From an uncultured Candidatus Saccharibacteria bacterium (GTDB taxonomy: Bacteria; Patescibacteriota; Minisyncoccia; Phycocordibacterales; UBA9973), in the NCBI GenBank assembly GCA_964500195.1, contig CAZCND010000002.1:1-43054 (forward strand): DNA of 43,054 nucleotides. The letters are read 5' to 3'. Positions within the stretch are counted from its first letter, which is position 1. Every line of letters begins with the position of its first letter. The notes under the pieces are model-generated. The model was not told the DNA's origin. It worked only from the letters and a program-made list of their open reading frames with translations, and ran no database searches. The translations under genes and the position numbers were made by a program. This document shows positions 1,483 to 43,054 of this stretch, one piece after another.

Positions 1483-1493
1483 AATATTATAAT

Positions 1494-2186
1494 ATGTCAA
1501 AAGTTGTTCACCCATATGCTCATAGATTAGTTACCTTACGTGATTGGAAATCACGCTGGTTTGGAGATGAAGATTATAAAAATCTTTTAAAGAGTGATGT
1601 TGTTATTAGGGAATTTTTAGCAAAGAAACTGAGAGGCTTTTATGTTTCTAGGATAGAAATAGAAAGAAATGCTAAAGCAACAAAAATATTAGTTTACACA
1701 TCTAGACCAGGAATGATTATCGGAAGATCAGGAGAGGGTGTATCAAAAATAAAGAGTGAGATGGTTAAAGCTCTTCATCGCAAAAACGTTGATATCCCTG
1801 GAGATTTTAAATTTGATATTGTAGAGGTTACTAATCCTGATGCTGATGCTTCCATCATTGCTTGTTCTATTGCTGAGGCTTTAGAAAAAAGATTACCATA
1901 CAGAAGAGTAATGAAGCAGACTATTGATAAAATAATGTCAGCAAGAGGGGTAAAAGGAGCACGCATTTACTTAGGAGGAAGATTGTCTGGAGCTGAAATT
2001 GCCAGAAGCGAACAAATCAAAAGAGGTTCTATTCCATTACAAACTTTTAGGGCTGATGTTGATTTTGCTAGAGAGAAAGCTCACATGAGTTATGGTGATA
2101 TTGGTATTAAGGTTTGGATATATCGAGGAGAAGTTTTTTCTGATAATAATGGGTCTAATCCAAACAAGAATCAAAATTTTAAATAA
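1494..2186 (+). CDS. rpsC: 30S ribosomal protein S3
   Basis: KVHPYAHRL..WKSRWF N-terminus, KH-domain GRSGEGVSKIK, operon order. Confidence 0.97.
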   Translation: MSKVVHPYAHRLVTLRDWKSRWFGDEDYKNLLKSDVVIREFLAKKLRGFYVSRIEIERNAKATKILVYTSRPGMIIGRSGEGVSKIKSEMVKALHRKNVDIPGDFKFDIVEVTNPDADASIIACSIAEALEKRLPYRRVMKQTIDKIMSARGVKGARIYLGGRLSGAEIARSEQIKRGSIPLQTFRADVDFAREKAHMSYGDIGIKVWIYRGEVFSDNNGSNPNKNQNFK

Positions 2187-2191
2187 ATATT

Positions 2192-2608
2192 ATGTTAATT
2201 CCGAAGAAAGTAAAATATAGAAAATGGCAAACTGGACGAAGAAATATGTCTAGAGTTTCTTCTGATACTAGGGGAACTACAGTTTCTTTTGGTTCTTATG
2301 CTCTCAAGGCTGTAACTGCAGGAAGAATTAGAACTAACCAGATAGAAGCAGCTCGTAAGGCAGCTTCCAGAGCTCTTGGAAAGGTTGGAAAAATGTGGAT
2401 TAGAATATTTCCAGACAGACCTTTTACAGCTAAAGCTGCTGAAGTTGGTATGGGAAAAGGAAAAGGAGATTTGCAGGGTTACTGTCTTTATATTCGACCA
2501 GGAAGAGTTATATTTGAGGTTGATGGGGTTTCAGATTCTGTGGCTAAAGAAGCCTTGAGAAAGGCCGGAACTAAATTACCAGTTAACACTCGTGTTGTCT
2601 CACGATAA
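2192..2608 (+). CDS. rplP: 50S ribosomal protein L16
   Basis: [16 protein letters not shown]..., [20 protein letters not shown]. Confidence 0.97.
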
Positions 2609-2613
2609 TATTT

Positions 2614-2859
2614 ATGGAAAATCAAGCAAAGAAAACAAATAAAATTTTAAAAGGAGTAGTTACTTCTGATAAGATGGATAAAACTGTAGTAGTTAAAGTT
2701 TCGCGTTTTGTTGAGCATAAAAAATACGGAAAGAGAATAAAAAAAACTAAGAAATACAAAGTTCACGACGAAAACAATACCAAAAAAGTTGGAGATATAG
2801 TAGAAATCGAAGAGACCCGTCCAATCTCTAAGGATAAAAAGTTTAAAGTAATTAGTTAA
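2614..2859 (+). CDS. rpsQ: 30S ribosomal protein S17 (starts 5 nt after the L16 stop, so no L29 gene lies between them)
   Basis: [18 protein letters not shown]...[18 protein letters not shown]. Confidence 0.96.
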
Positions 2860-2869
2860 TTTCAAAAGT

Positions 2870-3241
2870 ATGATTCAAGATGGAACAGTAGTAAATATAA
2901 CAGACAATGCCGGAGGAAAAATCGGTAAGGTTTTCAAGATTCTTGGTTCTTCTAAGCGTCGCTATGCTTCCATTGGAGATCGAGTAATTTTGTCAATTAA
3001 GGTTGCTGAACCAAGAAAGATAATTAAGAAAAAAGATGTTTGCCAGGCTGTAGTTGTTAGGACAGTTAAATCATATAGAAGAAAAGATGGCTCATACATA
3101 CGTTTTGATGATAATGCTGTTGTTATTTTAGAAAAAGATAAAATGGATCCAAAAGCAGGAAGAGTATTCGGACCAATCCCTAGAGAATTAGCAGAACGTG
3201 GTTATCAAAAAATTATTTCATTAGCTCAAGAAGTTATATAG
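2870..3241 (+). CDS. rplN: 50S ribosomal protein L14
   Basis: MIQDGTVVNITDNAGGK...; canonical L14 length. Confidence 0.97.
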   Translation: MIQDGTVVNITDNAGGKIGKVFKILGSSKRRYASIGDRVILSIKVAEPRKIIKKKDVCQAVVVRTVKSYRRKDGSYIRFDDNAVVILEKDKMDPKAGRVFGPIPRELAERGYQKIISLAQEVI

Positions 3242-3245
3242 TAAT

Positions 3246-3470
3246 ATGAAAATAAAAAAAGGAGATAATATAATAGTAATAGCTGGTGCTGACAAGGGTA
3301 AAAAAGGAAAAGTTACAAAAGCTATTCCTTCTTTAAACAAGGTTATTGTTGAAGGAGTTAATATAAGAAAAAAAGCCCATAAATCAAGAAAAAAAGGAGA
3401 TCCTAGTCAAATAATCGATGTAGCTATGCCAATAGATGTTTCTAACGTGGCAAAAAAAGATAATAATTAG
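3246..3470 (+). CDS. rplX: 50S ribosomal protein L24 (short form)
   Basis: KOW motif KKGDNIIVIAGADKGKKGKV. Confidence 0.95.
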   Translation: MKIKKGDNIIVIAGADKGKKGKVTKAIPSLNKVIVEGVNIRKKAHKSRKKGDPSQIIDVAMPIDVSNVAKKDNN

Positions 3471-3488
3471 AATATTAAATTTAAGAAA

Positions 3489-4028
3489 ATGGAAACAATA
3501 AAGCAAAAAGAGAAAAAATCATTTGAAACCTTGAAAGCCAAGTATGGTTACAAGAATGTTTTATCAGCCCCTCGTTTAGTCAAAGTGGTTGTTTCAAGCG
3601 GTACTGGCTCAGGTGTTAAAAAGAATAAGGATTATAATGATTTGGTTAGAGATAGAATATCTAAAATAACAGGGCAGAAACCTTCTTTAAAGAGTGCTAA
3701 AAAATCAATAGCTAGTTTTAAGATTAGAACTGGTGATCCAGTAGGAGTAATGGTGACATTGCGAGGAGCTAGAATGTATGGCTTTTTAGAAAAACTCATT
3801 AATGTAGCTATTCCTAGAACTAAAGATTTTCGAGGAATTGACCGAAAGATTGTTGATAATATAGGGAATCTAACAATGAGTATAAAAGAGCACACTATCT
3901 TTCCAGAAACAGGAGATGAGGAGCTTAGAGATGTATTTGGATTGGCAGTTACGATGGTAACTACCGCTAAAACAAAAGCTGAAGCTTTAGATTTCTTTGA
4001 GACGATAGGGGTTCCGTTTAAGAAATAA
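3489..4028 (+). CDS. rplE: 50S ribosomal protein L5
   Basis: APRLVKVVVSSGTG..., FRGIDRKIVDNIGNLTMSIKEHTIFPE. Confidence 0.97.
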   Translation: METIKQKEKKSFETLKAKYGYKNVLSAPRLVKVVVSSGTGSGVKKNKDYNDLVRDRISKITGQKPSLKSAKKSIASFKIRTGDPVGVMVTLRGARMYGFLEKLINVAIPRTKDFRGIDRKIVDNIGNLTMSIKEHTIFPETGDEELRDVFGLAVTMVTTAKTKAEALDFFETIGVPFKK

Positions 4029-4218
4029 TATTTTTTGTTGGTATTCAAAAATCTAACTTTGTAAGATTTCTTGTTAAACCATGAGTTTTTCCCATTAACT
4101 TGTAAATTTTTTATCTTATTTTTGGGCATTGTTAATTTTCTTAATAAAAGCTCCCATTGTGTAAACTCTTTTTTGGTAGAAAATAAAAAGCAGAGATTTT
4201 TTTGAAAGAAGTAAAATA

Positions 4219-4248
4219 AAAAGCCATCCAACGGAATGGCTTTTTAAA
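4219..4248. terminator. Bidirectional intrinsic terminator between rplE and the reverse ORF
   Basis: AAAAAGCCATCC-AACG-GAATGGCTTTTT, with A and T runs on both sides. Confidence 0.7.
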
Positions 4249-4252
4249 TCTT

Positions 4253-4765
4253 TTAGAAATCAAATTCTCTTTTCATACTTCCCACAGGGAGTATGAATTT
4301 ATACAGGAGAATTTCTTTTCTTGACTCTAATAATAGAAAGCGGGGGATTTTGCCATCTATTTTTAACTCACTCACTACTAGGATCCCCGTGTTTACCAGC
4401 GTGTTGTCCTCATAGATGAGAACATTATTGCCGGCCTTAACTTTTTGTTGCACCAGTGATCCGTCCCCCCTTTTTTCGTTCCAGGTGTAATACTGGGTTG
4501 AACCTATCTGCCCATACCCTAGGATGAAGCCACCTTCAATCTCAGAGTTGCTTTTTAGGTAGATTAATGTTTTTCTTTCGATTTCTTCCCAGTGTTTTGG
4601 TTTAAGATACCAAACTGCACGACTCAATACTATCCAAACAGTGAGCCCCACTAGGAAGCACATTATTATCATTTCCAGTTTTTCTGGAATGGTGGTGTTT
4701 TTAAATTGTCCACTAATAAGTAGGACAATAAAAACAACCGACGAAAAAATCAAAAAATAAATCAT
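4253..4765 (-). CDS. Hypothetical membrane protein (two N-terminal TM segments) inserted antiparallel between rplE and rpsZ
   Basis: 170-aa ORF with hydrophobic N-terminus, flanked by a terminator and an own-promoter region; no family recognised. Confidence 0.6.
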   Translation of the reverse strand: MIYFLIFSSVVFIVLLISGQFKNTTIPEKLEMIIMCFLVGLTVWIVLSRAVWYLKPKHWEEIERKTLIYLKSNSEIEGGFILGYGQIGSTQYYTWNEKRGDGSLVQQKVKAGNNVLIYEDNTLVNTGILVVSELKIDGKIPRFLLLESRKEILLYKFILPVGSMKREFDF

Positions 4766-4994
4766 AATAAATAAATTTAAAATTTCAAATAGTATAGCAC
4801 AATAGAATCACTTTGTCAATATTTTTGGTAATGTATATACCTCTCGACTTGTGCGTGTGTTGACATTTGTAAATCATTTTGATAGTATTTAGTGGTCTCG
4901 TGCAAAGCCGATCTATGTTTCTCCTTAAGACATTTTATAAGGTTTTAAGAAAAAACATAAGATATCGCTTGGCTTGGGACTAAGTATTTTATTT

Positions 4995-5180
4995 ATGGCA
5001 AAAACATCAGTAATAGCAAGACATTTAAAAAAGGCAAAATTTAGCACCAGAAAGACTAATCGTTGTTTTCGTTGCGGACGAGCTCATGGTTACATGAGAG
5101 ATTTTGGACTTTGCCGAATTTGTTTCAGAGAAATGGCTAATGAGGGGACATTACCAGGAGTTAGAAAATCAAGCTGGTAA
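4995..5180 (+). CDS. rpsZ: 30S ribosomal protein S14, zinc-binding type Z (61 aa; ORF track start at 4974 is a TTG)
   Basis: MAKTSVIAR..., CxxC...CxxC ([20 protein letters not shown]). Confidence 0.95.
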
Positions 5181-5211
5181 TTTCCTATTATAATTAATTT
5201 AATTTAGACAA

Positions 5212-5601
5212 ATGGATCAAATAGCAAATATGATAAATATGATTAAGAACGCCAGTGTTAACGGACACGAGTTTGTGGTTGTTTCTTTCTCAAAAATTAA
5301 ACTAGCTATTGCCGAATGTTTAGTTAAAGAAGGATATTTAAAATCAGTTAATAAAAAGAACAGAAAAGGTTTTCCTGTTTTAGAATTAGAACTTTCATAC
5401 CAAGAAGAGGGAACCCCTAGAATTACAGGAGTAGGTAGAATATCAAAATCTTCAAGGAGAGTTTACTACGGAGTTAAAGATATAAAAAAGACAATCAGTA
5501 ATTATGGAATGGTAGTATTGTCGACACCAAAAGGAATATTAACAAACAAACAAGCTTCCAAAGAAATGGTTGGAGGAGAAGCTTTATTTAAGATTTGGTA
5601 A
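5212..5601 (+). CDS. rpsH: 30S ribosomal protein S8
   Basis: DQIANMINMIKNA..., LSTPKGILTNKQA; operon order. Confidence 0.97.
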   Translation: MDQIANMINMIKNASVNGHEFVVVSFSKIKLAIAECLVKEGYLKSVNKKNRKGFPVLELELSYQEEGTPRITGVGRISKSSRRVYYGVKDIKKTISNYGMVVLSTPKGILTNKQASKEMVGGEALFKIW

Positions 5602-5605
5602 TTAT

Positions 5606-6142
5606 ATGAGCAGGATAGGAAAACAAATAATTGAAATACCTACAAATACAGAAATTACCCAAAACGGTATAAGTCTTTCCGTTAGAGGTCCAAAGGGAAC
5701 TTTAAAAAGAGATTTTCCGGGTAAAGTTTCAATAAAGATAGATGGTAAAAATATATCTTTTGTTCCACAAGTAGAAGGAGATAAAGAAGTCAATGCTCTT
5801 TGGGGAACTTATGCTTCACATGTAAAAAATATGATAATTGGTGTTAATGAAGGATATTCTAAGAAATTAATTTTAGAAGGAGTTGGTTTTAAGTCCGATG
5901 TTTCCGGAAAAACTTTAAATTTAGCTCTTGGTTTTTCTCACCCTGTTAAGATTGAAATACCTGAAGGACTAACCGTAACAGCTGAAAAAAATAACATTAC
6001 TATTTTTGGAATAGATAAAGAATTAGTTGGATATTTTTCAGCTTCTGTTAGGGCTCATAAAAAACCTGAGCCTTATAAAGGAAAAGGATTTAGATATTCA
6101 GACGAAGTAATACGCCGAAAGCAGGGTAAAAAAGCAGCTTAA
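5606..6142 (+). CDS. rplF: 50S ribosomal protein L6 (ATG at 5606, after the S8 stop)
   Basis: MSRIGKQIIEIP...VRGPKGTL. Confidence 0.96.
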   Translation: MSRIGKQIIEIPTNTEITQNGISLSVRGPKGTLKRDFPGKVSIKIDGKNISFVPQVEGDKEVNALWGTYASHVKNMIIGVNEGYSKKLILEGVGFKSDVSGKTLNLALGFSHPVKIEIPEGLTVTAEKNNITIFGIDKELVGYFSASVRAHKKPEPYKGKGFRYSDEVIRRKQGKKAA

Positions 6143-6162
6143 TAATAAATAATTAAATTAGA

Positions 6163-6504
6163 ATGAATAAAAAAGTAGAAAAAAGAATAAGGCTTAAAAC
6201 AAAAATTAGAGCAAAAATAAAAGGGACAGATGAACGACCTCGCCTTTCAGTTTTTCGCTCAAATAATTATATTTATGCTCAGATTATAGATGATACAAGA
6301 AAAAAGACCCTAGCCTCTGCTTCTGATGTTAAAATAGATAAAGGTTCAAAAGCAGAAAGAGCTAAAATGGTAGGACAAGAAATAGCAAAGGTGGCTCTTC
6401 TAAAAAAAATAAAGAGATGTGTTTTTGATCGTAATGGATTTAAATATACAGGTCGGATAAAAGCTCTAGCTGATTCAGCCAGAGAGGCAGGTTTAGATTT
6501 TTAA
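6163..6504 (+). CDS. rplR: 50S ribosomal protein L18
   Basis: [20 protein letters not shown]; C-terminal [20 protein letters not shown]. Confidence 0.97.
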
Positions 6505-6508
6505 TATT

Positions 6509-7123
6509 ATGGAAAATACAGATAAGACAAGCCAAGAAGTAAAAAATAAAAACGGTTTTAATCGTCAGCCTTTTAAGGGTAAAAGAGATCAAGGGGGACG
6601 TCTTCCAAGAGCTACTTTTCAAACACCAAAACCAGATTTTGATCAAAAGATAGTTTCTATTCGTCGAGTTACTCGTGTGGTTGCAGGAGGAAGAAGAATG
6701 ACTTTTGCAGTAGCTATGGCGATTGGAGATAAAAAGGGATCTTTAGGACTAGGTACCGGCAAGGGGGGAGATACAGCTATTGCTATAAACAAAGCCCTTC
6801 GTCAGGCTAAGAAAAGTATGTTTAAAATTAAAACAGACAAAAATATGCTTATCCCTCATGAAGTTTCCGCAAAAGATACTAGCTCAGTTGTCATCATCAA
6901 ACCAAACAAAGATAAAGGATTGGTAGCTGGAAGTACAGTCAGAGAGATGTTAATTTTGGCTGGTTTAAAAAATATTACCGCAAAAATAAATTCTCGAAGT
7001 AAAAATAAATTGAACAACGCAAGAGCCACTTACAAAGCATTATTGAAATTGAAAGACAAAAGAGTCAGTCCAAAAACTTTAGAAGTAGAAAATTCTTCAA
7101 AGGCTGAAGATAAAAAAGATTAA
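6509..7123 (+). CDS. rpsE: 30S ribosomal protein S5 with N- and C-terminal extensions
   Basis: VSIRRVTRVVAGGRRMTFAVAMAIGD..GLGTGKG. Confidence 0.96.
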   Translation: MENTDKTSQEVKNKNGFNRQPFKGKRDQGGRLPRATFQTPKPDFDQKIVSIRRVTRVVAGGRRMTFAVAMAIGDKKGSLGLGTGKGGDTAIAINKALRQAKKSMFKIKTDKNMLIPHEVSAKDTSSVVIIKPNKDKGLVAGSTVREMLILAGLKNITAKINSRSKNKLNNARATYKALLKLKDKRVSPKTLEVENSSKAEDKKD

Positions 7124-17247: not shown

Positions 17248-19062
17248 ATGAAGAGTTTTAGTGTATCCACTTATTATATTATTTGTGTTAATATCTCTAA
17301 GGTGAGTAAAATAAAAACGAAATGGAATTTTAAACTTTTATATGGAAGTGATGACAGTACAGAGATAGAGAAAGATTTTAAAAAGGGAGAAAGAGCTGTT
17401 ATTTCTTTTAGAGATAAATATAAAAATAATAAAAAATATTTAAACGACGCAGATGAGCTTTTTTTGGCTTGCAAGGATTATGAGAAATTGATAGAGAGCA
17501 CAGAACTCACGAAGCCGTATTGTTATTTTATTTTAAGAAGGGATGTTAATCAAAATGATAAAAAACTAAATGCCAAAGTAAATGAATATCAAGAAAAATT
17601 AGACAAAACAAGCAATGAATTGTTGTTTTTTACTCTTAATGTTGGAAAAATAGATAAGGAAAAGCAAAAAGAATTCTTAAAAAACAAAAAACTTAGCAAA
17701 TATCATTATTTTCTTAATAAAATATTTGAAAATGCTAAATACTGTCTTACAGAAGAAGAAGAAAAAGTGATAAGTTTATTTAGTACACCTGCGAATGGTA
17801 TGTGGATTGAAGGGGTAAATAAGGTTCTGTCAAAACAGGAAGTTAATTTTCAAAATAGAACAATGCCGATAAGTGAAGCTATGGGGCTCTTGTCAAATTT
17901 AGAAACAAAAAAAAGAAGAAAACTAAATCATTTAATAAATCAAAAATTTATAGAAGTGTCTGATTTTAGTGAAGCTGAAATTAATGCCATATATACTACT
18001 AAAAAGATATCTGACGATTTAAGAGGATTTAAAACGCCGTATCAATCGACGATAAAGAGTTATGAGAACGAAGAAAAGGTTATAGAGAATCTAGTTAAAA
18101 CGGTTACGGATAATTTTAAAGTTGCGCATAGATTTTATAAGATTAAAGCAAAAATTTTAAAAGAGAAAAGATTAGAATATGCTGATCGTTCTGCTTCTGT
18201 TGGTGTTATTCATAAAGACTTTTCTTTTGAAGAAACAATTAAAATCGTTAGAAATGGATATGAAAGATTCGGCAGTGAATATGAAAAAATATTTGAAGAC
18301 TATCTCTTAAACGGGCAAATAGATGTTTATCCTAAAAAAAGTAAAAAAGGAGGGGCGTTTTGTTTTGGTGTTTATGGATTGCCGACGTTCATTCTTTTGA
18401 ACCAAGTTGATAATTATCAATCTGTCCTAACTCTTGGTCATGAAATGGGGCACGCCATTCATACCAAGTTTTCTCACACTCAACCTTCAATTTATTCTGA
18501 CTACACCATGTCTGTTGCAGAAACAGCCAGTACTTTATTTGAAAATTTTGTTTTTGATGAAATATATGAAAGTCTTTCCGAGAAAGAAAAAATTATAGCA
18601 TTGCATAATAATATAAATGATAATATCTCTACAATATTTAGACAGATTGCTTGTTTTAATTTTGAGGAAGAATTGCACGAGACAATTAGAAAAAACGGAT
18701 ATTGTGCCAAAGAAGATATTGCTAAAATAATGAACAAACACATGAAAAGCTATCTTGGTCCAATGTTTGATTTAAAAGAAGAAGACGGATATTTCTTTGT
18801 TGATTGGTTGCATATTAGGAGGTTTTTTTATGTTTATTCTTATGCTTATGGATGTTTGATTAGTAATTTTATGTACCAAGAATATAAGAAGGATAAAAAA
18901 TTCAAAGACAAAATAGAACAATTTTTAAAAGCAGGAGGAAGTAAGAGCCCTGAAGATATTTTTTCTGATATAGGGATAAATATTTGTGATTCAAAATTTT
19001 TTGAAAATGGGCTTAAGGCAATTGAGAATGATATTATAAAATTAGAAAAATTGGTGAAATAA
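17248..19062 (+). CDS. pepF: Oligoendopeptidase F-like M3B metallopeptidase (true start may be the in-frame GTG at 17302)
   Basis: LGHEMGHAIH zinc motif; ~600-aa M3 architecture. Confidence 0.85.
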   Translation: MKSFSVSTYYIICVNISKVSKIKTKWNFKLLYGSDDSTEIEKDFKKGERAVISFRDKYKNNKKYLNDADELFLACKDYEKLIESTELTKPYCYFILRRDVNQNDKKLNAKVNEYQEKLDKTSNELLFFTLNVGKIDKEKQKEFLKNKKLSKYHYFLNKIFENAKYCLTEEEEKVISLFSTPANGMWIEGVNKVLSKQEVNFQNRTMPISEAMGLLSNLETKKRRKLNHLINQKFIEVSDFSEAEINAIYTTKKISDDLRGFKTPYQSTIKSYENEEKVIENLVKTVTDNFKVAHRFYKIKAKILKEKRLEYADRSASVGVIHKDFSFEETIKIVRNGYERFGSEYEKIFEDYLLNGQIDVYPKKSKKGGAFCFGVYGLPTFILLNQVDNYQSVLTLGHEMGHAIHTKFSHTQPSIYSDYTMSVAETASTLFENFVFDEIYESLSEKEKIIALHNNINDNISTIFRQIACFNFEEELHETIRKNGYCAKEDIAKIMNKHMKSYLGPMFDLKEEDGYFFVDWLHIRRFFYVYSYAYGCLISNFMYQEYKKDKKFKDKIEQFLKAGGSKSPEDIFSDIGINICDSKFFENGLKAIENDIIKLEKLVK

Positions 19063-19375: not shown

Positions 19376-19605
19376 TAATATAATGCTATCATATATGGAT
19401 TCATTTGTCAAGTATTCCTAGTAGATATTTTAGGTGTCACCAATGGTTACAAGATAATATCCTTATCTAGTAAGGATATTTATGGTTATTACTAGAAAAT
19501 CCTCATTTTGTTTGCTAACAAAATGAGGCTCCGTTGCTCGATTTCCACACGCGAGCAAAGCCCGTCCGAACGGGTCATCCGGGTGGGCAGTTTGCTTGCT
19601 CATAT

Positions 19606-19790
19606 CCACAATAGAAAAACCCAAACGAGTTGGGTTTTCTATTGTGGACCCATCAGGCGAATCGTTAGATGCTTTAAAATATTATCTTTCTCGCTTTTGG
19701 GTGTATTATCAAAGCAATAAAAACCTTCAAAATATGCTTGAAAATGTTGAATAGATTGATTATTTATATTACACAGATAGAGTATTAGAT
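19606..19790 (-). repeat. R1: copy 1 of the ~150-nt cassette-separating module (core 19644-19790), with an adjacent long hairpin/terminator
   Basis: Shares long identical runs with R2-R4, for example tattatcaaagcaataaaaaccttcaaaatatgcttgaaaatgtt. Minus-strand TTGAAG-16-TGaTAATAC; 16-bp hairpin at 19606-19648. Confidence 0.85.
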
Positions 19791-19825
19791 GAACCTATGT
19801 TAATAATATATTTATTTAATTGACC

Positions 19826-19854
19826 TTGACAGAAGTGTTTCAATATGCTATAAT
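19826..19854 (+). promoter_or_regulatory. Consensus promoter for the 86-aa membrane ORF
   Basis: TTGACA, 17 nt, (TGc)TATAAT. Confidence 0.7.
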
Positions 19855-19982
19855 AGCTAAGTATAGTTCTTTTCATAGTTTTGTATTTATTTGCTTACAT
19901 TTTGTTGAGTTCTCCTAGTTTCTTTAAGGAGATTAAGAGAACTTAATAAAACTTATTGTTAAACAATTTAAATTCAAAACAA

Positions 19983-20216
19983 ATGAGAACAAATTGGTTA
20001 GAAAAATTGGCTCTTGGAGTTGGTATCGGTGTTCTTACAATATTTATTATTGCTGTTGTCAGTATTATCGCAGCTATTCCAACATTCTTTTTGTGGAATT
20101 GGCTGATGCCGACAATTTTTGGCATCGTAAAGATAACATTTTGGCAGGCGTGGGGAGTAAATTTCCTTGCAGGTGTTCTGTTCAAAAGTTCATCAACCAA
20201 ACAAAGCGATAAGTAA
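19983..20216 (+). CDS. Small hypothetical membrane protein (2-3 TM); the ORF opens at a TTG at 19956, ATG at 19983
   Basis: Hydrophobic ORF bracketed by a consensus promoter and a terminator; no family recognised. Confidence 0.55.
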   Translation: MRTNWLEKLALGVGIGVLTIFIIAVVSIIAAIPTFFLWNWLMPTIFGIVKITFWQAWGVNFLAGVLFKSSSTKQSDK

Positions 20217-20231
20217 GATGTATCAAACAAA

Positions 20232-20268
20232 CTCGCAACGAGAAAACTCGCTTGCGGGTTTTCTTTTT
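20232..20268 (+). terminator. Terminator of the 86-aa ORF; an inverted copy of the terminator module used by the other cassettes
   Basis: CGCAACGAG-AAAA-CTCG(C)TTGCG, then GGTTTTCTTTTT; homologous to 21284-21320 in reverse complement. Confidence 0.7.
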
Positions 20269-20295
20269 ATTTATTTAAAATTAAATTAATTATAC

Positions 20296-20500
20296 TGGTT
20301 CAATATCTTCCACATCTATACCAAAAATACCTTTACAAAATAAGGTTTAAAAAGTTGTGGACTTGTCAGGCAATACGTTAAGCGCCTTAAAAGATTACCT
20401 TTCTCACTTTTGGGTTTATTATCAAAGCAATAAAAACCTTCAAAATATGCTTGGGGATGTTAGTTTATAGTGTTTGTAGGTATCACAGTTAGGGTATTGA
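20296..20500 (-). repeat. R2: copy 2 of the module (core 20356-20500; left extension 20296-20355 is shared with R4)
   Basis: Aligned by eye to R1, R3 and R4. Minus-strand TTGAAG-16-TGaTAATAA, then ~85 nt, then AACCTTAT.../...AAGGT hairpin plus T-run. Confidence 0.85.
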
Positions 20501-20501
20501 A

Positions 20502-20546
20502 TAAAGAAAAGGAAATCACCTAAAAGATGATTTCCTTTAGGTGATT
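20502..20546 (-). terminator. Terminator of the 152-aa ORF
   Basis: TCACCTAAA...TTTAGGTGA 9-bp stem with flanking A/T runs. Confidence 0.7.
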
Positions 20547-20552
20547 TTTTGT

Positions 20553-21011
20553 TTAACGTTTTCGTGGACTACTTAGAATGTTAGGAGCACTCGGTCCCGT
20601 GAAAACTTTTGTTTTACTTTTTGGATGTTTATAAAAAAGTTGTAATGTCCAAACAACATGACCACTTCCTCCGACTGTACCTAAAACCCTATAACCAGTC
20701 CATTTAACTGAAGTGTCAGCCTTAAGAATTTCAGTAATGAATTGGATTATCTCACGGTCTGTTGTTTTTTTATTCCCAATCCACCCTCCTAATTGCATCT
20801 GTCCACCTTTTGTGTATTTTTTAATACAATCATTTGCGTGTTCATACCACCATCCCAAACATCTATCACTATCAGCTGTGACAAGCTTATCTTTGTCTGA
20901 ATATGTATTTGGGAATTGAAACTGTCTCAAATACATACCGCTTGCTTTGCCAAAAGTACCAAATTCGCCAAGTTTATACGGCTCAGCGGGATATACAGTA
21001 AATTTTTCCAT
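20553..21011 (-). CDS. Hypothetical protein (152 aa), cassette ORFan
   Basis: Clean ORF with own TTGACA / TGaTAGTAT promoter and terminator; no family recognised. Confidence 0.6.
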   Translation of the reverse strand: MEKFTVYPAEPYKLGEFGTFGKASGMYLRQFQFPNTYSDKDKLVTADSDRCLGWWYEHANDCIKKYTKGGQMQLGGWIGNKKTTDREIIQFITEILKADTSVKWTGYRVLGTVGGSGHVVWTLQLFYKHPKSKTKVFTGPSAPNILSSPRKR

Positions 21012-21096
21012 AGTTAATATGTTTTTTAATTGAACTCAGATTTATTTGTATGTGATACTATCATAATAAAATATATTTGTCAAGTATATAAACATT

Positions 21097-21276
21097 AAAA
21101 ACCCTTATAAAATAAGGTTAAGATTAAAAGTGGACTCGTCAGGCAAATCGTTAAGTGCTTTACAACATTACCCTTCTCGCTTTTGGGTGTATTATCAAAG
21201 CAATAAAAACCTTCAAAATATGCTTGAAAATGTTGGGTAGTTTTATTATTTATACTACACAGATAGAGTATTAGAT
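21097..21276 (-). repeat. R3: copy 3 of the module (core 21130-21276); putative sRNA about 21098-21182
   Basis: Minus-strand TTGAAG-16-TGaTAATAC (plus 21189-21194 is the -10); AACCTTAT-TTTA-TAAGGGTT plus TTTTT at 21098-21120. Confidence 0.85.
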
Positions 21277-21283
21277 GTAGATA

Positions 21284-21320
21284 AAAAGAAAACCCGCAAG
21301 CGAGCTCTCTCGTTGCGGGG
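21284..21320 (-). terminator. Terminator of the 440-aa ORF (shared cassette terminator module)
   Basis: Minus strand CCCGCAACGAG-AGAG-CTCGCTTGCGGG, then TTTTCTTTTT. Confidence 0.75.
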
Positions 21321-21322
21321 AT

Positions 21323-22645
21323 TTAATGTTTTAAAACAGCAATGGGTAAAGAGTCAGCCTTTTGCCCACCTTTATTTCGTGTATGGTTGCAAACAAAAGT
21401 CTCACCACTTTTTAATTCATAGTTCAAAATTTGTTTAGCCAAATCTCTGGCTTTTTGGGATGCTTGATATCCCTCAGGCAATCTTCTTACATGACATATA
21501 ACATCATGCTCCCTCTTTAGGACATGAATCGGATTATCTTTAACAGATGTATCATACTCACTTTCCAATTCTCTTTTTATTTCATTCAGATTATCAAACA
21601 GGACCCTTATCCTTTGGAGATAAAGCTTTGGGTTGAACTTTGAAAATCTTGGGATAATTCCACTCAACCAATTATTTGTCGGAAAGCTTGGGATATTATA
21701 CTTTTTGTGCACTATTGTAGGTACAACCAAATCATATAATCTGAATATTGCATTTGCTCTAATCATCTCATATAATTCAATCCTGTTTAGTCTTTCAAAT
21801 GAACTTCTCAAATTCACAGAAGAAATTCCAGCTAAATTTGATAATTCTCCGTCAACATTAACAGTGAAAGCAGCTTTACAATCAATACCACCCAAAAATG
21901 TTGGTGCTTGATCGTTATCAATCAAATTGTTTGGTATCGGAGAAGTGCTAATAATCCTGGACTTATTTATTACTACCATCGCTACTTTATTCTTGTTGAG
22001 AATTTGAGTTTTTCTTTTCATCTGCCAGTTGAATTCACTACTATATAATTCAGTGTATGAATAATCGGCAGGTAGATAAATCCAGTAATCATTAGGGGCA
22101 GAGATTATCCCATCTTTAAAAGCAGATGATTTTACTCCATACTGACGAAGTTCAAGTAGCTCTGACATTACATCGTTAGTAGATTTTTCTTGAAGATTGA
22201 ATTTTTCATTGAATAATTCAACATTCTTTACTATGGTGTTGTTTTCGTAATAAGATAAAAGTTTGTTGATATTTCTGACATTAGTCAGAAGAACTGTTAA
22301 CTTCATACCAACAAAATTTATATTCGGTCCAAATTTTGCAATCTCAGCCGCAATTCTTTTTTCAGTTCTTTCATTTCCAGACAATAGTGTTGCAACATAT
22401 TCAGCAATAATGCCTACAAATAAATTAGTCCGATGAATTTCTTTATTCCAACCGATGTGTTTATTTCTAATATCATCGATCGCAAGTATAACATTTATAA
22501 AGTTTTTTATGATTAATTCATCGTCACTTTGTCCCAAAAAATAAGTTTTGAAAATTTTTTCAGATAGAATCTCACATTGAGCATTATCCCAACTTTTTGA
22601 TGTTAAAAGTTGTTTTACGAGGTTTAAATAAACAAAATTTTTCAT
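21323..22645 (-). CDS. Hypothetical protein (440 aa), cassette ORFan
   Basis: Long uninterrupted ORF with own consensus promoter and terminator. C-terminal HDVICHVRRLPEGYQASQKA...GETFVCNHTR segment; no family confidently recognised. Confidence 0.7.
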   Translation of the reverse strand: MKNFVYLNLVKQLLTSKSWDNAQCEILSEKIFKTYFLGQSDDELIIKNFINVILAIDDIRNKHIGWNKEIHRTNLFVGIIAEYVATLLSGNERTEKRIAAEIAKFGPNINFVGMKLTVLLTNVRNINKLLSYYENNTIVKNVELFNEKFNLQEKSTNDVMSELLELRQYGVKSSAFKDGIISAPNDYWIYLPADYSYTELYSSEFNWQMKRKTQILNKNKVAMVVINKSRIISTSPIPNNLIDNDQAPTFLGGIDCKAAFTVNVDGELSNLAGISSVNLRSSFERLNRIELYEMIRANAIFRLYDLVVPTIVHKKYNIPSFPTNNWLSGIIPRFSKFNPKLYLQRIRVLFDNLNEIKRELESEYDTSVKDNPIHVLKREHDVICHVRRLPEGYQASQKARDLAKQILNYELKSGETFVCNHTRNKGGQKADSLPIAVLKH

Positions 22646-22767
22646 TTGTATTTGTTTTTAAGTTAATATTTATTGAATTTCCCTCATCCCACTTAGGTAG
22701 GGGAACAAAGAAAATTCAATAAAATACTCTAAAAACCAAAATATCAAAGAACTATACTACTCTATAT

Positions 22768-22796
22768 AGTATAGCATATTTATGATAGATTGTCAA
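22768..22796 (-). promoter_or_regulatory. Consensus promoter for the 440-aa ORF
   Basis: Minus strand TTGACA, 17 nt, (TGc)TATACT. Confidence 0.7.
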
Positions 22797-22807
22797 ACCC
22801 TGCGTAA

Positions 22808-23014
22808 TGGTTCAATATACCCCATATCTATACCAAAAAACCCTTATGGAATAAGGATGTTTGAATTGTGGACTCGTCAGACCAATCGTTAAGCGCCTTA
22901 AAAGACTACCTTTCTCGCTTTTGGGTATATTATCAAAGCAATAAAAACCTTCAAAATATGCTTGAAAATGTTTAATAGATTGATTATTTATACTACACAG
23001 GTAGAGTATTAGAT
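22808..23014 (-). repeat. R4: copy 4 of the module (core 22868-23014; extension 22808-22867 is shared with R2)
   Basis: Minus-strand TTGAAG-16-TGaTAATAT, then ~85 nt, then CCTTAT-TCC-ATAAGG plus TTTTTT. Confidence 0.85.
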
Positions 23015-23069: not shown

Positions 23070-23393
23070 TTAATCCAACAAAATATACATTTCTTTTAAA
23101 ATGTGAAAAGTAAAATTTAATTGTGTCATGCTCACAACGGAAATTGTATATTCAAATGTTGCTTTACCATTCAAAACACTCAAAGGGCATGGTGATAAAA
23201 TAGCAAACCATTCGTATTCGTCAGCAGGAAGTGGAACAACGAAAATTTCATTGTTACTAGTTTCAGTTCTTATTGTTTCAATTACATCATCTAATGATTT
23301 TGTTTTGATTTCACCATTAAGAATCTGTTCATGGATATCTAAATAATCATAGATGCCAGCTATTTTTTTGTTTGATATTTGTGAAAGTAACAT
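23070..23393 (-). CDS. Hypothetical protein (107 aa), cassette ORFan
   Basis: AAGGAGG 5 nt upstream of the ATG; own promoter region carrying a perfect palindrome. Confidence 0.6.
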   Translation of the reverse strand: MLLSQISNKKIAGIYDYLDIHEQILNGEIKTKSLDDVIETIRTETSNNEIFVVPLPADEYEWFAILSPCPLSVLNGKATFEYTISVVSMTQLNFTFHILKEMYILLD

Positions 23394-23439: not shown

Positions 23440-23472
23440 TACAATTATTATTAAAAAAGTCAAGCATAATTA

Positions 23473-23481
23473 TGCTATAAT
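23473..23481 (+). promoter_or_regulatory. Extended -10 promoter (TGcTATAAT) placing a start near 23488, the first G of element A
   Basis: The same TGCTATAAT motif precedes ftsH, ackA, ndk and the 86-aa ORF in this window. Confidence 0.55.
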
Positions 23482-23484
23482 GGA

Positions 23485-23670
23485 TGTGGAGATGGCGGGA
23501 ATCGGTCAGGAATAATTTTCTCGCCGTCGCTCGAAAATTTTCACGACCCTGGCTCGGCTATTTCGCCTGCTAGCGAAATTAAGCCTCCGCCTTTCGATTC
23601 CCGCACGGAAGACAAGCAGTTGTCTTCCTCATCTCCACATTATAAAAACCCCCCAAAAATGGGTTTTTTA
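23485..23670 (+). ncRNA. Element A: ~155-nt structured RNA/palindromic element whose ends copy the tmRNA acceptor and T-arm 3' end, followed by a terminator
   Basis: 5' TGTGGAGATGGCGGGAATCG pairs with CGATTCCCGC (23595-23604) and CATCTCCACA (23630-23639). Internal hairpins are GGTC...GACC, ATTTCGC-CTGCTA-GCGAAAT and GGAAGACA-AGCAGT-TGTCTTCC. AAAAACCC...GGGTTTTT terminator. Confidence 0.5.
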
Positions 23671-23675
23671 TAATG

Positions 23676-24057
23676 TGGAGATGGCGGGAATCGAACCCGC
23701 GTGCGGAGGGAACTCTTGTATAAATCTACATGTTTATTATGTTCATTTGGTTTAGATATTTACCCTAGAGAACATACAAAAAAAGTAAATACCGAGTTCT
23801 TAATTGTTAGAATCAATACCGAACAATTATTGATTCTTAACCCGATAAATTATGCCCATGATCTATATCGGATGTCTAGAAATGGACACTTGTTTGACCT
23901 AAATTTAGGCGAAAGCAAGAGCAAGGTTTCCAAAATAAGGAGACCCTACTTTAGCGACTTTGTTTACACTTAGTCTTTTAGAGGAAGTTTAAAAAGATTC
24001 CTCTACACTTTACATGCATATACAAGATGATTCTCTTCGTCGAAGCCGATCATCCCC
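23676..24057 (-). ncRNA. ssrA: tmRNA (SsrA), one-piece, CCA not encoded. Predicted tag AKVGSPYFGNLALAFA (resume GCT at 23955-23953, stop TAA at 23907-23905)
   Basis: 5' GGGGATGATCGGCTTCGACG; 3' GCGGGTTCGATTCCCGCCATCTCCA; acceptor stem with G3-U70; lies immediately downstream of smpB. Confidence 0.93.
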
Positions 24058-24115
24058 TTTTTATTACGCCGAAGCATGAATGTGCGTAGGCGGATTTTAT
24101 AATTTTTTCAACGAT

Positions 24116-24559
24116 CTATCTTTTATATTCTCTTTCCATTTCTCTGTCCAAATCTCTTTTTTTGATTGTTTCTCTTTTATCAAAAGTCTTTTTCCCTTTG
24201 GCTATAGCGATTGAAACTTTAATATAAGGACCTTTACTATACAACGAAAGTGGCACAAGTGTCAATCCCTTAATGTCGTCTTTGTCTGCTAGTTTTTTAA
24301 TGTCTTTTTTGGATAAAAGTAATCGCCTTGTTCTTTCAGGGTCATGCGCTGGGTCAGTGTTGTTTGGCTGGTAGGGGGGTATGTTTAAGCCTATTATATA
24401 TGCTTCTCCTCCACGGATGACACAAAAAGTAGAGTTCAAGTTTCCTTGTCCTTTTCTAATAGATTTTACTTCATGGCCGAGAAGTTCTATACCCGCTTCA
24501 ACGGTTTCTTCTATCGTATAATTAAAATGGGCTTTTTTGTTTTCTAAATAAGTTACCAT
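24116..24559 (-). CDS. smpB: SsrA-binding protein SmpB
   Basis: NKKAHFNYTIEETVEAGIELLGHEVKSIRKG; basic C-terminal tail. Confidence 0.96.
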   Translation of the reverse strand: MVTYLENKKAHFNYTIEETVEAGIELLGHEVKSIRKGQGNLNSTFCVIRGGEAYIIGLNIPPYQPNNTDPAHDPERTRRLLLSKKDIKKLADKDDIKGLTLVPLSLYSKGPYIKVSIAIAKGKKTFDKRETIKKRDLDREMEREYKR

Positions 24560-31795: not shown

Positions 31796-31952
31796 TGCGG
31801 AATACTAGTCGGGATTTGGTCACGAGTTACTAAATTTTTTGCTCCAAGTATTCGCAAAAAACAAAGTACTCGCGACCCCGTCTCGTCAGTCTGAAAAGTT
31901 TTTCAAACTTTTTTCTGGCTACGACCTTCGAATCCCTGCGTCACTCTCCGCA
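31796..31952 (+). repeat. Element C: second member of the A/B/C structured palindromic family. The 3' end reads ...TTCGAATCCCTGCGTCACTCTCCGCA followed by CCA
   Basis: Same architecture as A: terminal stem TGCGGA/TCCGCA plus GGGATT/AATCCC; long GGTCACGAGTTACT...AGTACTCGCGACC hairpin enclosing TTTTTTGC...GCAAAAAA; GAAAAGTTT-TTC-AAACTTTT hairpin. No promoter seen. Confidence 0.5.
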
Positions 31953-32002
31953 CCACAAACAAAAAACAGCAATAATATTGCTATTTTTTGTTTGTGGTGC
32001 GG
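31948..32002. repeat. Near-perfect 27-1-27 palindrome that starts inside the 3' end of element C
   Basis: CCGCACCACAAACAAAAAACAGCAATA-A-TATTGCTATTTTTTGTTTGTGGTGCGG, one mismatch. Confidence 0.9.
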
Positions 32003-40306: not shown

Positions 40307-40563
40307 AGCTTGATACCTCCTATCTTTAGTATTGTTAAAGAACAACACCCACAGGAACATCCTATAGGTACCCCATCATACATATTATTAATACAAATGT
40401 CAATCTTTTTTGGGGCACATTAGCCAATCAGAGGTTACCAACACCTACCACTAAGGGCGCTCTGGACTCCTGAGAGGTGTTGCGTCATTCCTTGTGTTGT
40501 ATGACAAACGCAACAACACAAGCGCCATTAGGGACTACGGCCAAAGTAGTAGTCCCCGTAAAG

Positions 40564-41829
40564 ATGAAATACTGCCTCTATGCGAGAAAGTCGACAGAGT
40601 CAGAAGAAAGACAAGTCCTTTCAATAGATAGCCAAATCAGCGAGATGCTCCAATTAGCCGATCGTGAGGGGCTTGAGGTGGTCACCATGAAGCGTGAAAG
40701 CCATAGTGCTAAAGAGACTGGTCAGAGACCAGTATTTAACGAAATGGTTGAAGAACTCAAACAAGAGAAGTTCAATGCAATCCTCACTTGGGCACCTGAT
40801 CGTATTTCAAGAAATGCAGGCGACCTTGGAAAAATAGTAGATCTAATGGATTCAGGTAAACTACATATAATAAGAACCTTCGGACAAACTTTTGGAAATA
40901 ATCCAAATGAGAAATTCCTTCTCATGATTCTAGGCTCACAAGCAAAACTAGAAAATGATAATCGAGGTATCAACGTGAAGCGAGGATTACGAACAAGAGT
41001 AGAGATGGGATTATGGCCTGGCATGGCACCACTTGGATATTTAAACCAAAAATTAATGGACAGGAAGTGTCAAATAGTAATTGATCCAGATAGAGCACCA
41101 ATCATTAAGAAAATGTTTGAGAAAGTAGTGTATGAACATTGGAGTGGTAGAAAGGTATATAACTGGTTACGATTTGATTTAAATTTCTATACTCGAGGAA
41201 ATAAACCCCTGACACTCTCAGGGGTTTATCGTATTTTTAATATGCCAATCTATTATGGACCATTTGAATATCCTAGAAATTCTGATAACTGGTATCAAGG
41301 AAGTCATACACCAATAATTACTCAAGAGTTATTTGAAAAAGCTCAAGCACAATTAAAGAGAGATAGGATTGTAAGAGAAAATAGAGAGTTCGCATTCACT
41401 AAACTGTTCACCTGCGGCATGTGCGGGTCAGGCATCACCGCCCAAGAAAAGTACAAAATACTCAAGGACGGTACGAACGCCAAGTACATCTACTATTCAT
41501 GCTCCAAGGCAAAGGACCGTGATTGCAAGAACAAATACATCCGAGAAGAGGAATTGATCGACGAACTCTTCAAGATTATCGACCAGGTGAATATCAACGA
41601 ACTTGGGATGCGCATGAAACTTGAGGAAGAGATTAAACGATTCAACCGACTACAGCGATTGGCAACCAAGGGTACACCAAAATACAATATCAACGAGGAT
41701 GAAATTAATACCCGGGAATACGCCAAGTATGTACTCAAGGAAGGCACTGCGCTCGAAAAACGAGAGCTTCTAGGACATCTAAGATCACGATTACTACTGG
41801 AAGACAAGAAGATTAGCCTGGTTCAGTAA
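40564..41829 (+). CDS. Large serine recombinase (resolvase domain, recombinase domain, zinc ribbon, coiled coil); ATG at 40564 preferred over 40477
   Basis: N-terminus MKYCLYARKSTESEERQ (catalytic Ser context), AILTWAPDRISRN, CGMCGS...YYSCSKAKDRDCKNKY zinc ribbon. Confidence 0.88.
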   Translation: MKYCLYARKSTESEERQVLSIDSQISEMLQLADREGLEVVTMKRESHSAKETGQRPVFNEMVEELKQEKFNAILTWAPDRISRNAGDLGKIVDLMDSGKLHIIRTFGQTFGNNPNEKFLLMILGSQAKLENDNRGINVKRGLRTRVEMGLWPGMAPLGYLNQKLMDRKCQIVIDPDRAPIIKKMFEKVVYEHWSGRKVYNWLRFDLNFYTRGNKPLTLSGVYRIFNMPIYYGPFEYPRNSDNWYQGSHTPIITQELFEKAQAQLKRDRIVRENREFAFTKLFTCGMCGSGITAQEKYKILKDGTNAKYIYYSCSKAKDRDCKNKYIREEELIDELFKIIDQVNINELGMRMKLEEEIKRFNRLQRLATKGTPKYNINEDEINTREYAKYVLKEGTALEKRELLGHLRSRLLLEDKKISLVQ

Positions 41830-42868: not shown

Positions 42869-42928
42869 ACCTTTGTGGGTCGCACGACATCCATAGGGAT
42901 ATAGGTCGCGAAACTACCAGGTTGTCAA

Positions 42929-43054
42929 TGCGGAGACGCAGGGATTCGGTCACTCTCGTGGATATTTTGCCTTGCTTCGCTTGCAAAATATCTCACTCCC
43001 TCGACCCCCACTCGGGCTGGCCGCTTCGCGGACTTCGTCAGCCCTCGGTTCGAA
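42929..43054 (+). repeat. Element B: third member of the A/B/C family, truncated by the window end at ...GGTTCGAA
   Basis: 5' TGCGGAGACGCAGGGATTCG-GTCAC; GATATTTTGC...GCAAAATATC hairpin; CTCGACCCCC; GGCTG...CAGCC hairpin; then CCTCGGTTCGAA. Collinear with A and C. Confidence 0.5.

Follow-up and report, generated by a model that had tools for sequence, protein, structure and literature searches.

A ~190-bp structured cassette with direct and inverted copies of the tmRNA 3′ end, recurring behind small RNA genes of Patescibacteria, may be a mobile unit without its own integrase

Introduction

Insertion of islands into the genes for tRNA and transfer-messenger RNA (tmRNA) is textbook, and a repeat that runs from the T loop to the end of the gene is its standard sublocation. 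A repeat of this kind follows the tmRNA gene ssrA in a 43,054-nt stretch of DNA from an uncultured Candidatus Saccharibacteria bacterium (contig CAZCND010000002.1, assembly GCA_964500195.1), which was analyzed as a whole and is called the window below. Only a short insert separates the two copies, and the locus raises the question of whether the repeat is the scar of a crossover or a working part of something else. A first-pass annotation had offered two answers, a minimal element without an integrase in an ssrA attachment (att) site, or an array built to the left by serial integrations at that site.

We find that the far copy of the repeat is one strand of a non-coding, hairpin-rich cassette of ~190 bp (23486-23674, minus strand) that lies directly 3′ of ssrA and belongs to a family found behind both tmRNA and tRNA genes. 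The evidence consists of the architecture of the cassette, its conservation and covariation, the match of its arms to the target gene, a polymorphism exactly at ...CTCCAC(A), and the occurrence of the identical unit in another genomic context. We favor the view, at a probability of about one half, that this is an integrase-less mini-cassette mobilized in trans, with an att-like module that inserts site-specifically, possibly by way of a folded single strand. A protein-free structured unit of 190 bases with a copy and a mirror copy of its target, swappable bodies, and versions for tmRNA and at least four tRNA genes is unusual, and whether it acts as DNA or as RNA, annotators should not take 3′ fragments of ssrA or tRNA genes in Patescibacteria for simple island scars.

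Architecture of the cassette downstream of ssrA

The window contains exactly two copies of ATGTGGAGATGGCGGGAATCG, at 23484-23504 and 23673-23693, and no third at up to 3 mismatches; the chance expectation was 0.00 in 100 shuffles. The ssrA gene lies on the minus strand at 23675-24057 according to ARAGORN (23673-24057 and 131 bits with Rfam RF00023), with smpB (24116-24559) upstream. It does not encode CCA and ends in ...CCGCCATCTCCAC(A), and metatranscriptome contigs cover it over 23675-24044. Given these placements, the copy at 23673-23693 is the genuine ssrA 3′ end; it complements the 3′ strand of the acceptor, the T stem and five of the seven bases in the T loop, and the two copies part company at 23505 and 23694, within the T loop. 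The 168-bp insert between them (23505-23672) has no ORF and holds the same sequence in inverted orientation, as CGATTCCCGC at 23595-23604 and CATCTCCACAT at 23630-23640; these halves are 25 nt apart (23605-23629), and the gap is occupied by a 22-nt hairpin at 23607-23628. The first-pass annotation had described the exact repeat, its identity with the tmRNA terminus, the break midway through the T loop and the split inverted copy in the insert, and in each of these it was right.

The arrangement is not an assembly artifact. Contigs from three independent DNA runs (X1, X2, X8) match the junctions without mismatch, and the same architecture recurs in more than 100 independent contigs. Short-read contigs do stop within the element, because its modules recur across the community, and this is the one point in favor of chance or mis-assembly, which the spanning contigs and the shuffling already refute. 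The locus is also not a permuted tmRNA gene: ARAGORN reports one standard tmRNA, not a two-piece gene in which the acceptor part precedes a coding part with a tag reading frame, and partial Rfam tmRNA_permuted matches of 25-30 bits, under the gathering score of 47, cover model positions 36-94 only and reflect the ssrA 3′ end plus the head of the cassette.

Read on the tmRNA-sense strand, which is the minus strand of the window, the cassette runs from a spacer hairpin through a head and a body to a tail. The spacer (23641-23672, inverted repeat I20) folds into a hairpin closed by a T-run and is thus the intrinsic terminator of the gene upstream, here ssrA. The spacer also makes up the first part of the unit and is shared by the copy of the unit at a related locus (L149); a T-run ends 78 of the 80 unique spacers of the family. 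In the head (23593-23640), with the layout TGTGGAGATG-AG-hp9-CGT-GCGGGAATCGAA, the outer parts are the reverse complement of the last ~22 nt of the gene and are split by hp9 (23607-23628), a 9-bp hairpin with a conserved CTGC loop. Beneath this one loop the family has 53 distinct stems, in which 465 of 477 pairs (97.5%) are Watson-Crick, with 3 G.T and 4 A.C combinations. The body is a three-way junction, in the window of an alpha type with helices P2 (23551-23591, from fold and alignment) and P3 (23504-23548, with a GGUCG...UGACC base and a near-invariant G.U pair) and the conserved junction motifs GGAAUCGAAAG, CGAG, GGGGUCG and UGACCGA; further body types (beta, gamma and more) fill the same frame. 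The tail (23484-23504), the first copy of the 21-nt repeat, reproduces the ssrA 3′ end in direct orientation. The last bases of the unit are ...CTCCAC, up to 23486, and the tail sequence ...CGATTCCCGCCATCTCCAC pairs with the head and closes the module.

By its fold and a model-fitted alignment, the unit appears as an imperfect palindrome that folds as a single strand and whose helices covary. In the covariance-model alignment, which by its fitting favors the model, 92% of cells are paired (66% when shuffled, 34-48% in slid controls), changes occur on both sides in 59 of 60 pairs, and all ten helices covary; the hp9 figures are free of that bias. In a fold that takes in the ssrA 3′ end, the head pairs by preference with that end and a single long hairpin forms with the terminator at its tip. 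The head pairs either with the tail or with the end of ssrA, and therefore has two alternative partners.

A family of cassettes matched to the neighboring RNA gene

Related loci were gathered by SmpB anchoring, and they show the organism to be a member of Patescibacteria that is Paceibacteria/Nomurabacteria-like. Among 22 related species-level genomes that are readable past ssrA, the cassette arrangement is present in 13, a gene for a large serine recombinase abuts ssrA in 4, and 5 have neither. A pattern scan of metagenome contigs gave 115 loci with 98 heads that carry the expected complementary hairpin, a set whose uniformity is partly built in, since the pattern fixed the head sequence and the loop. 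A covariance model made from the window element had 83 matches in the metagenome loci and 13 in the genome set, all of them in Patescibacteria loci, and 0 in 44 ssrA loci from outside the candidate phyla radiation (CPR). The exact head pattern, the one form counted here, occurs at one site per contig, even on contigs of 100-600 kb. Rfam 15 has no match to the family at or near the gathering score; run on the window and 20 loci, it returned tmRNA, tRNA and one LOOT RNA, and otherwise sub-threshold noise. Literature searches found no published description of such elements, and the family is apparently undescribed. The LOOT RNA (RF03000, 85 bits) lies at 650-771 on the minus strand of one locus (L174), ~350 nt from the head, and other non-coding RNAs may share these variable regions in the same manner.

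Most family members carry a direct copy, and nearly all a mirror-image copy, of the last ~20 bases of the gene upstream. Among 43 unique pairs of head and upstream gene, the acceptor part is matched at 10 of 10 positions in 33 and the T part at no fewer than 10 of 12 in 30. Heads change in step with the T arm and acceptor of the tmRNA (CACTTCCAC in L006 and L011, CTCCCAC in L012, CCCCC in L032), with further in-step variants in L096, L100, L125 and L166. The same cassette design stands behind tRNA-Ser (L014, L195), tRNA-Met (L131), tRNA-Ala (L099), tRNA-Ile (L024) and a variant tmRNA (L031). Heads complementary to the 3′ end of the gene are those of L014, L195, L099, L024 and L031; those of L131 and of L042, the latter behind an untyped tRNA, match it partly or not at all. 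Tails are identical to the gene 3′ end over 10-21 nt in all of these members, and over 15-21 nt in those linked to tRNA genes. Heads that stand behind D1-like units, a repeat of the array to the left of the cassette, retain tmRNA-type arms, so the arms are borne by the element and not copied from the local target. The member behind the untyped tRNA (L042, 1-260) has a 21-nt tail repeat that includes an encoded CCA and lies on a contig labelled Elusimicrobia, which could be a case of mis-binning or of a wider host range.

Polymorphism and exchange of units

Several comparisons show the unit changing as a block. The window unit (TGTGG...CTCCAC) and the L149 unit are identical at 154 of 155 nt, including the otherwise hypervariable hp9 stem; the latter stands behind a D1-like unit ending ...GTGTCCAC and has another distal flank, and the neighboring sequences are 76-83% alike. 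Both junction types, that of the window and that of L149, are present in runs X2 and X8. In run X4, one contig shows full identity for 427 nt with ssrA and the flank upstream of it (window 23674-24100) and diverges exactly after CTCCACA, where this conspecific strain has the unrelated sequence AGTAGTGAGTTTTTGCTTTTATTACACATT..., a flank with no match in the window or among the 195 loci compared. Second units differ in an allele-like manner between 99%-identical flanks (L137 and L168 versus L001 and L087). The body at 23504-23593, a widely shared module, recurs at 97-98% identity beside a different head in L143 and L160, and its depth in the DNA runs is 200-580x versus 10-25x for the flanks, about the same as that of the conserved tmRNA T arm. 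From the shared unit, the exact divergence and the swapped units and bodies, it follows that the units behave as spacer-head-body-tail cassettes. They sit right after a ...CCAC(A) end, and the tail of each offers the next such end, which fits the tail-bounded tandem units of three relatives (L020, L129, L137).

Mosaic arrays could also be left behind by decay. The units might be non-functional att-region debris of former serine- or tyrosine-recombinase islands at ssrA, their likeness to the ssrA end kept by gene conversion between repeats and their arrays shuffled by homologous recombination after DNA uptake. Many tails are indeed degenerate, with CATCTCCAC within 600 nt of only 24 of 98 heads; truncated copies exist, among them two relatives in the window described below (A′ and a third element without hp9); recombinase islands occupy the same site; and at one locus (L146) a tandem duplication includes a 57-nt ssrA fragment. 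Debris would not, however, retain 53 different perfectly compensated hp9 stems under a constant loop, covary in every helix, keep the body at about the k-mer depth of the tmRNA T arm across the community, or turn up in one and the same design after five or more different t(m)RNA genes, and we consider this explanation improbable. In the L146 duplication two heads lie 237 nt apart and the whole unit is repeated together with the ssrA 3′ fragment; the related loci L017 and L089 have a single copy, and the duplication could be true or an effect of assembly.

Recombinases and a proposed mechanism

The first-pass annotation invoked integrase crossover in the T loop, and the corresponding model is a classical tyrosine-integrase island, here cut down to its attP arms. 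The sublocation of the repeat is the standard one for such islands, and the unit is close to a lambda-type attP in size. Against this, the window has no Phage_integrase domain, the 127 representative ORFs within 6 kb of heads include a single one, the observable break points fall after ...CTCCAC(A) and not in the T loop, and a double-stranded attP needs neither covarying hairpins nor an inverted copy of the core. A tyrosine-type crossover scar is not supported; the repeat is an intrinsic and structurally constrained part of the unit, whose tail pairs with the head and whose helices covary, and we regard a reduced tyrosine island as very improbable. The broader proposal of a minimal integrase-less element at the ssrA att site fared better: the att geometry, the lack of any recombinase inside or beside the unit, the polymorphic site, the second context and the large serine recombinase islands found at exactly this position in relatives all agree with it, with the amendment that the repeat is also the closing strand of a conserved structure.

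We suggest that the unit would be moved in trans by site-specific recombination next to ...CCAC(A). With head and tail paired, the folded tmRNA-sense single strand would imitate the duplex 3′ end of the target gene, much as the attP of CTX phage or the attC of integrons mimics its partner site, and each inserted tail would restore a place for the next unit to land, which would account for arrays that are tandem and mosaic. More specifically, and more tentatively, the unit is possibly a target-matched recombination module for small RNA genes, an attC- or CTX-attP-like site whose head-tail stem reproduces the duplex 3′ end of the gene. Retargeting would then need a change of the two arms only, and the CPR bacteria would have an integron-like cassette and defense-gene hot spot with a recombinase possibly of the serine type. 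A recombination site of this kind would show how ultra-small CPR genomes build and renew the variable cassette region beside ssrA, and could bring to light a principle of target matching that is of use for inserting DNA site-specifically at RNA genes.

The only enzyme candidates seen are large serine recombinases. In four relatives (L010, L019, L022, L030) a gene for a 604-aa enzyme of this type ends within a few bases of the ssrA 3′ end. The window has a 450-aa large serine recombinase (40477-41829, plus strand; Resolvase, Recombinase and Zn_ribbon_recom domains), 17 kb from the ssrA unit and ~1.1 kb from a second family member. It shares 34% identity (E 6e-54) with the ssrA-abutting enzyme of L022 and 60% with one on an AT-rich IMG/VR viral contig (L266), which has no element or tRNA near its recombinase gene. 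We propose the window enzyme as a candidate for the trans-acting function.

A number of observations weigh against movement in trans. No recombinase is consistently adjacent to the heads, as the single Phage_integrase among the 127 ORFs illustrates, and the loci where a serine recombinase abuts ssrA are without heads; we know of no serine recombinase that uses folded single strands. Excised circles were not observed, and a double-stranded circle of 190 bp would be very small. The unit is absent from the viral contigs, phage records and plasmids searched. Five genomes have no cassette after ssrA (L002, L014, L033, L035, L036) and the X4 strain differs, but the precise empty site, with ssrA ...CTCCAC joined directly to ATCCATTATAGC, was not seen in a conspecific strain. 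The built-in uniformity of the scanned heads belongs here too. The remaining points concern the strand. Of 17 unique complete elements, 16 fold better on the tmRNA-sense strand (by a mean of -6 kcal/mol), G.U pairs number 48 on that strand and 20 on the other, and the near-invariant G.U pair of P3 (17 of 19, the remaining two having A-U) would read as an A.C mismatch if the opposite strand were folded. The body has highly conserved unpaired motifs, and sense-strand G.U pairs together with such motifs are the usual signature of a functional RNA. Some tRNA-linked members, finally, have a spacer without a T-run.

We also considered carriers and mechanisms of other kinds. An attP borne by a phage or plasmid was rejected: the head pattern is absent from viral contigs, and blastn against phage and plasmid collections gave no match. 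The ssrA 19-mer does occur in 69 viral contigs, 0 of which have a head, and by inspection these are mostly phage or permuted tmRNAs. A transposon was rejected as well; the inverted repeats begin TGTGG...CCACA, but no target-site duplication accompanies them and the copies are not scattered.

Strand, fold and transcription

The strand bias and the G.U pairs predict that the functional strand is the tmRNA-sense strand, and together with the covarying helices they are what a structured RNA would show. Such an RNA would be the 3′ trailer of read-through t(m)RNA precursors or a separate small RNA, in which a minihelix like an acceptor and T arm closes the three-way junction, the 21-nt repeat is the 3′ closing strand, and the cassette behavior is secondary. 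The conserved junction motifs point the same way. So do the orientation of the element, which is always that of the highly transcribed RNA gene upstream, the several tRNA-linked spacers that are not terminators, a second terminator after some elements, and the presence of the body in trace RNA contigs.

Transcription data speak against it. A terminator precedes the element in the 78 T-run cases, with no recognizable or consistent promoter after it, and no metatranscriptome contig covers 23484-23672 of this genome, though ssrA is covered. In two metatranscriptomes the k-mer depth of the body is ~3 versus 1400-7000 for the tmRNA T arm (400-2500x rarer), while in DNA the ratio of body to T arm is ~0.75. 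Moreover, G.U pairs are essentially not in excess in hp9; the head corresponds to the genomic ...CCACA and not to the mature ...CCA-CCA end, with A-U in place of the G3.U70 alanine identity pair; an RNA role by itself does not account for the presence of one identical unit in two contexts; and Rfam 15 has no such family. We judge a functional RNA, the chief rival of the mobile-cassette reading, rather unlikely as the primary role. The elements may nevertheless represent t(m)RNA-trailer RNAs of a new class, imitating the acceptor and T arm of the parent gene, in which case they would be a widespread structured class outside Rfam that is physically tied to t(m)RNA genes. The first-pass annotation had named membership of the repeat in a longer conserved functional RNA as evidence against an att duplication; the longer conserved and structured element is there, and it may act as RNA or as DNA. 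Folded single-stranded DNA would satisfy both the RNA-like features and the lack of transcription.

Other RNA-level readings were rejected. A small RNA from the plus strand had seemed plausible from an extended -10 box TGCTATAAT (23472-23480) that leads into the element and from a plus-strand fold with z = -8.4; it was set aside because 16 of the 17 elements fold better, and with more G.U pairs, on the tmRNA-sense strand. Hammerhead or other small ribozymes, a group II intron end, a retron and a primer-binding site were set aside too: their core motifs are absent, the neighboring ORFs scanned included no reverse transcriptase, and the head agrees with the genomic and not with the CCA-tailed 3′ end. 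At 23463-23480 on the plus strand, a perfect palindrome AGCATAATTATGCT overlaps the extended -10-like box TGCTATAAT and a TTGACT -35-like box that faces away from the element, toward a 107-aa ORF; by its sequence this is probably the promoter region of the next cassette.

Relation to known elements

The window unit is of a known kind, a t(m)RNA-gene integrative element or cis-mobilizable element (CIME); what is new is its size, the inverted copy of the target, the covarying fold, the modular bodies and the retargeting. As in islands of the Islander type, the insert has at its far end a direct repeat that consists of a 3′ fragment displaced from the gene, and the insert is missing from some relatives; unlike them, it has no integrase gene inside.

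The closest precedent is the set of ssrA-specific genomic islands of Dehalococcoides, which target the ssrA 3′ end and form tandem arrays downstream of it; their integrase, a large (CcrB-like) serine recombinase, has its gene adjoining ssrA on the reverse strand, and many of the islands have no integration module (McMurdie et al. 2011, PMC3146451). The four relatives with a large serine recombinase beside ssrA resemble this arrangement, whereas the window unit has no such gene at its side. The Dehalococcoides islands are several kb long with protein cargo, as opposed to ~190 bp and none, and no inverted copy of the ssrA end, covarying multi-helix module or tRNA-gene version has been described for them. 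Their tandem islands are bounded by the ssrA repeat, which is not so in the window with its two 21-mers; tail-bounded tandems occur in the relatives. CIMEs are bounded by att repeats, carry no recombination or transfer functions, accrete one behind another at a single site and rely on enzymes provided in trans (PMC5704250; PMC6323972); they are decayed integrative and conjugative elements or integrative and mobilizable elements of several kb (PMC5704250; ICEberg 2.0, PMC6323972). The window unit likewise has att repeats and neither recombination nor transfer genes, but neither a conserved folded module nor an inverted target copy is known from CIMEs.

The likeness to integron cassettes lies in a small cargo followed by an imperfect palindrome, in a structure that appears to be kept more than the sequence, and in mosaic arrays. 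The predicted single-strand fold recalls attC, with two ~10-bp duplex boxes, an asymmetric bulge between them, a variable branched tip and a boundary at the 3′ edge of the distal box. The attC cores (RYYYAAC / GTTRRRY) are absent, however, the arms here being TGTGGAGATG / CATCTCCACA; the partner is a t(m)RNA gene end instead of attI; and no IntI tyrosine recombinase with attI was found in the window or beside ssrA. Also unlike attC, the body has conserved sequence motifs and the better-folding strand is the sense strand of the neighboring RNA gene. For integrative mobile elements exploiting Xer, such as CTX phage, a topology derived from the published mechanism rather than computed would place a direct copy, a loop, an inverted copy, the payload and a further direct copy in that order after integration of a single-stranded hairpin att site that mimics the host target, and the order seen here would match it. 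Tandem arrays and the lack of an element-encoded integrase are further likenesses; the differences are that the target is not dif and that the 'genome' would be only ~100 nt. We know of no single-stranded replicon in these bacteria.

Repetitive extragenic palindromes (REPs), bacterial interspersed mosaic elements, Correia elements and miniature inverted-repeat transposable elements (MITEs) are also short, non-coding, palindromic and mosaic, often follow genes and overlap terminators. Such repeats occur in tens to hundreds of dispersed copies per genome, with target-site duplications or REP-associated tyrosine transposase partners, whereas this family is confined to a few RNA-gene 3′ flanks, no duplication flanks its inverted repeats, and its arms match the neighboring gene.

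The variable region and other cassettes in the window

In the clade, the region after ssrA, between the conserved ssrA and pepF/infC/rplT, is hypervariable (284 clusters from 464 ORFs), and its cargo in relatives includes restriction-modification, AbiEii and PIN genes; this flank looks like a defense or cassette hot spot. Defense-type genes in the variable region of four loci (L002, 6728-7996 on the minus strand; L015; L036; L122) encode an AbiEii nucleotidyltransferase toxin, HATPase_c_3 and PIN_12 proteins, and cytosine methylases with restriction enzymes, and in L002 they follow ssrA directly.

To the left of the ssrA unit in the window lies a cassette array with pseudo-ssrA ends (19636-23014, minus strand), in which four 155-nt D1 repeats (19636-19790, 20349-20503, 21122-21276 and 22860-23014) stand between single-ORF cassettes. 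The D1 copies are 63-100% identical to the reference copy, three of them at 87% or more, and share the blocks TTCAATAC.C, CATTT.CAAG, TTGCTTTGATAATA and CCAAAAGCGAGAAAGGTA. Each ends in ...GTCCAC(A), a pseudo-ssrA terminus ...TCCACA, followed by a terminator. At least 10 other contigs have D1-like units, and a head often comes next. We rejected D1 as a folded attC-like site, since RNAalifold gives only one weak 7-bp hairpin; D1 is conserved in sequence and not in structure. The first-pass annotation had suggested that this array was built by serial ssrA integrations. Its cassettes are bounded by D1 and it contains no further 21-mer, so the array does not show serial integration of islands bounded by the ssrA repeat.

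Four single-ORF units, each with its own promoter and terminator, lie between pepF (17248-19062) and the element. The ORFs of 440 aa (21323-22645, minus strand), 152 aa (20553-21011, minus strand) and 107 aa (23070-23393, minus strand) have no match in Pfam, NCBIfam or PHROGs, and the first of them none among PDB sequences either. The fourth, of 86 aa (19956-20216, plus strand), matches the phage membrane-protein family phrog_2169, and a 79%-identical copy of it adjoins the L149 element.

Three further relatives of the cassette were recognized in the window, all on the minus strand. The truncated A′ (19497-19610), identified by eye and by motif and lying under the covariance-model threshold, has the head TGTGGATATGAG, an interrupted hp9, GTGGAAATCGAG and a P2 hairpin, and stands behind the first D1 copy. 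The third member (31811-32002) has no hp9; an alpha-type body (31811-31936) lies behind a palindrome with 27-bp arms, CCGCACCACA...TGTGGTGCGG, which enclose a hairpin (31948-32002). The unit upstream of it, which ends in CCGCACCACA and extends to ~32330 in a 700-nt intergenic region, has no Rfam match and could be an unrecognized small RNA gene. The second member (42926-43054) is cut by the end of the window; its body is 81% alike to the modules of the tmRNA arrays, and its tail GACCGAATCCCTGCGTCTCCGCA (CGAATCCCTGCGTCTCCGCA) mimics a tRNA 3′ end. The corresponding tRNA gene should lie just past the window end, where an extension recovered only a 2-kb contig that gave no view of it. To the left of this second member are a HAD-like ORF, a serine hydrolase gene and the large serine recombinase gene.

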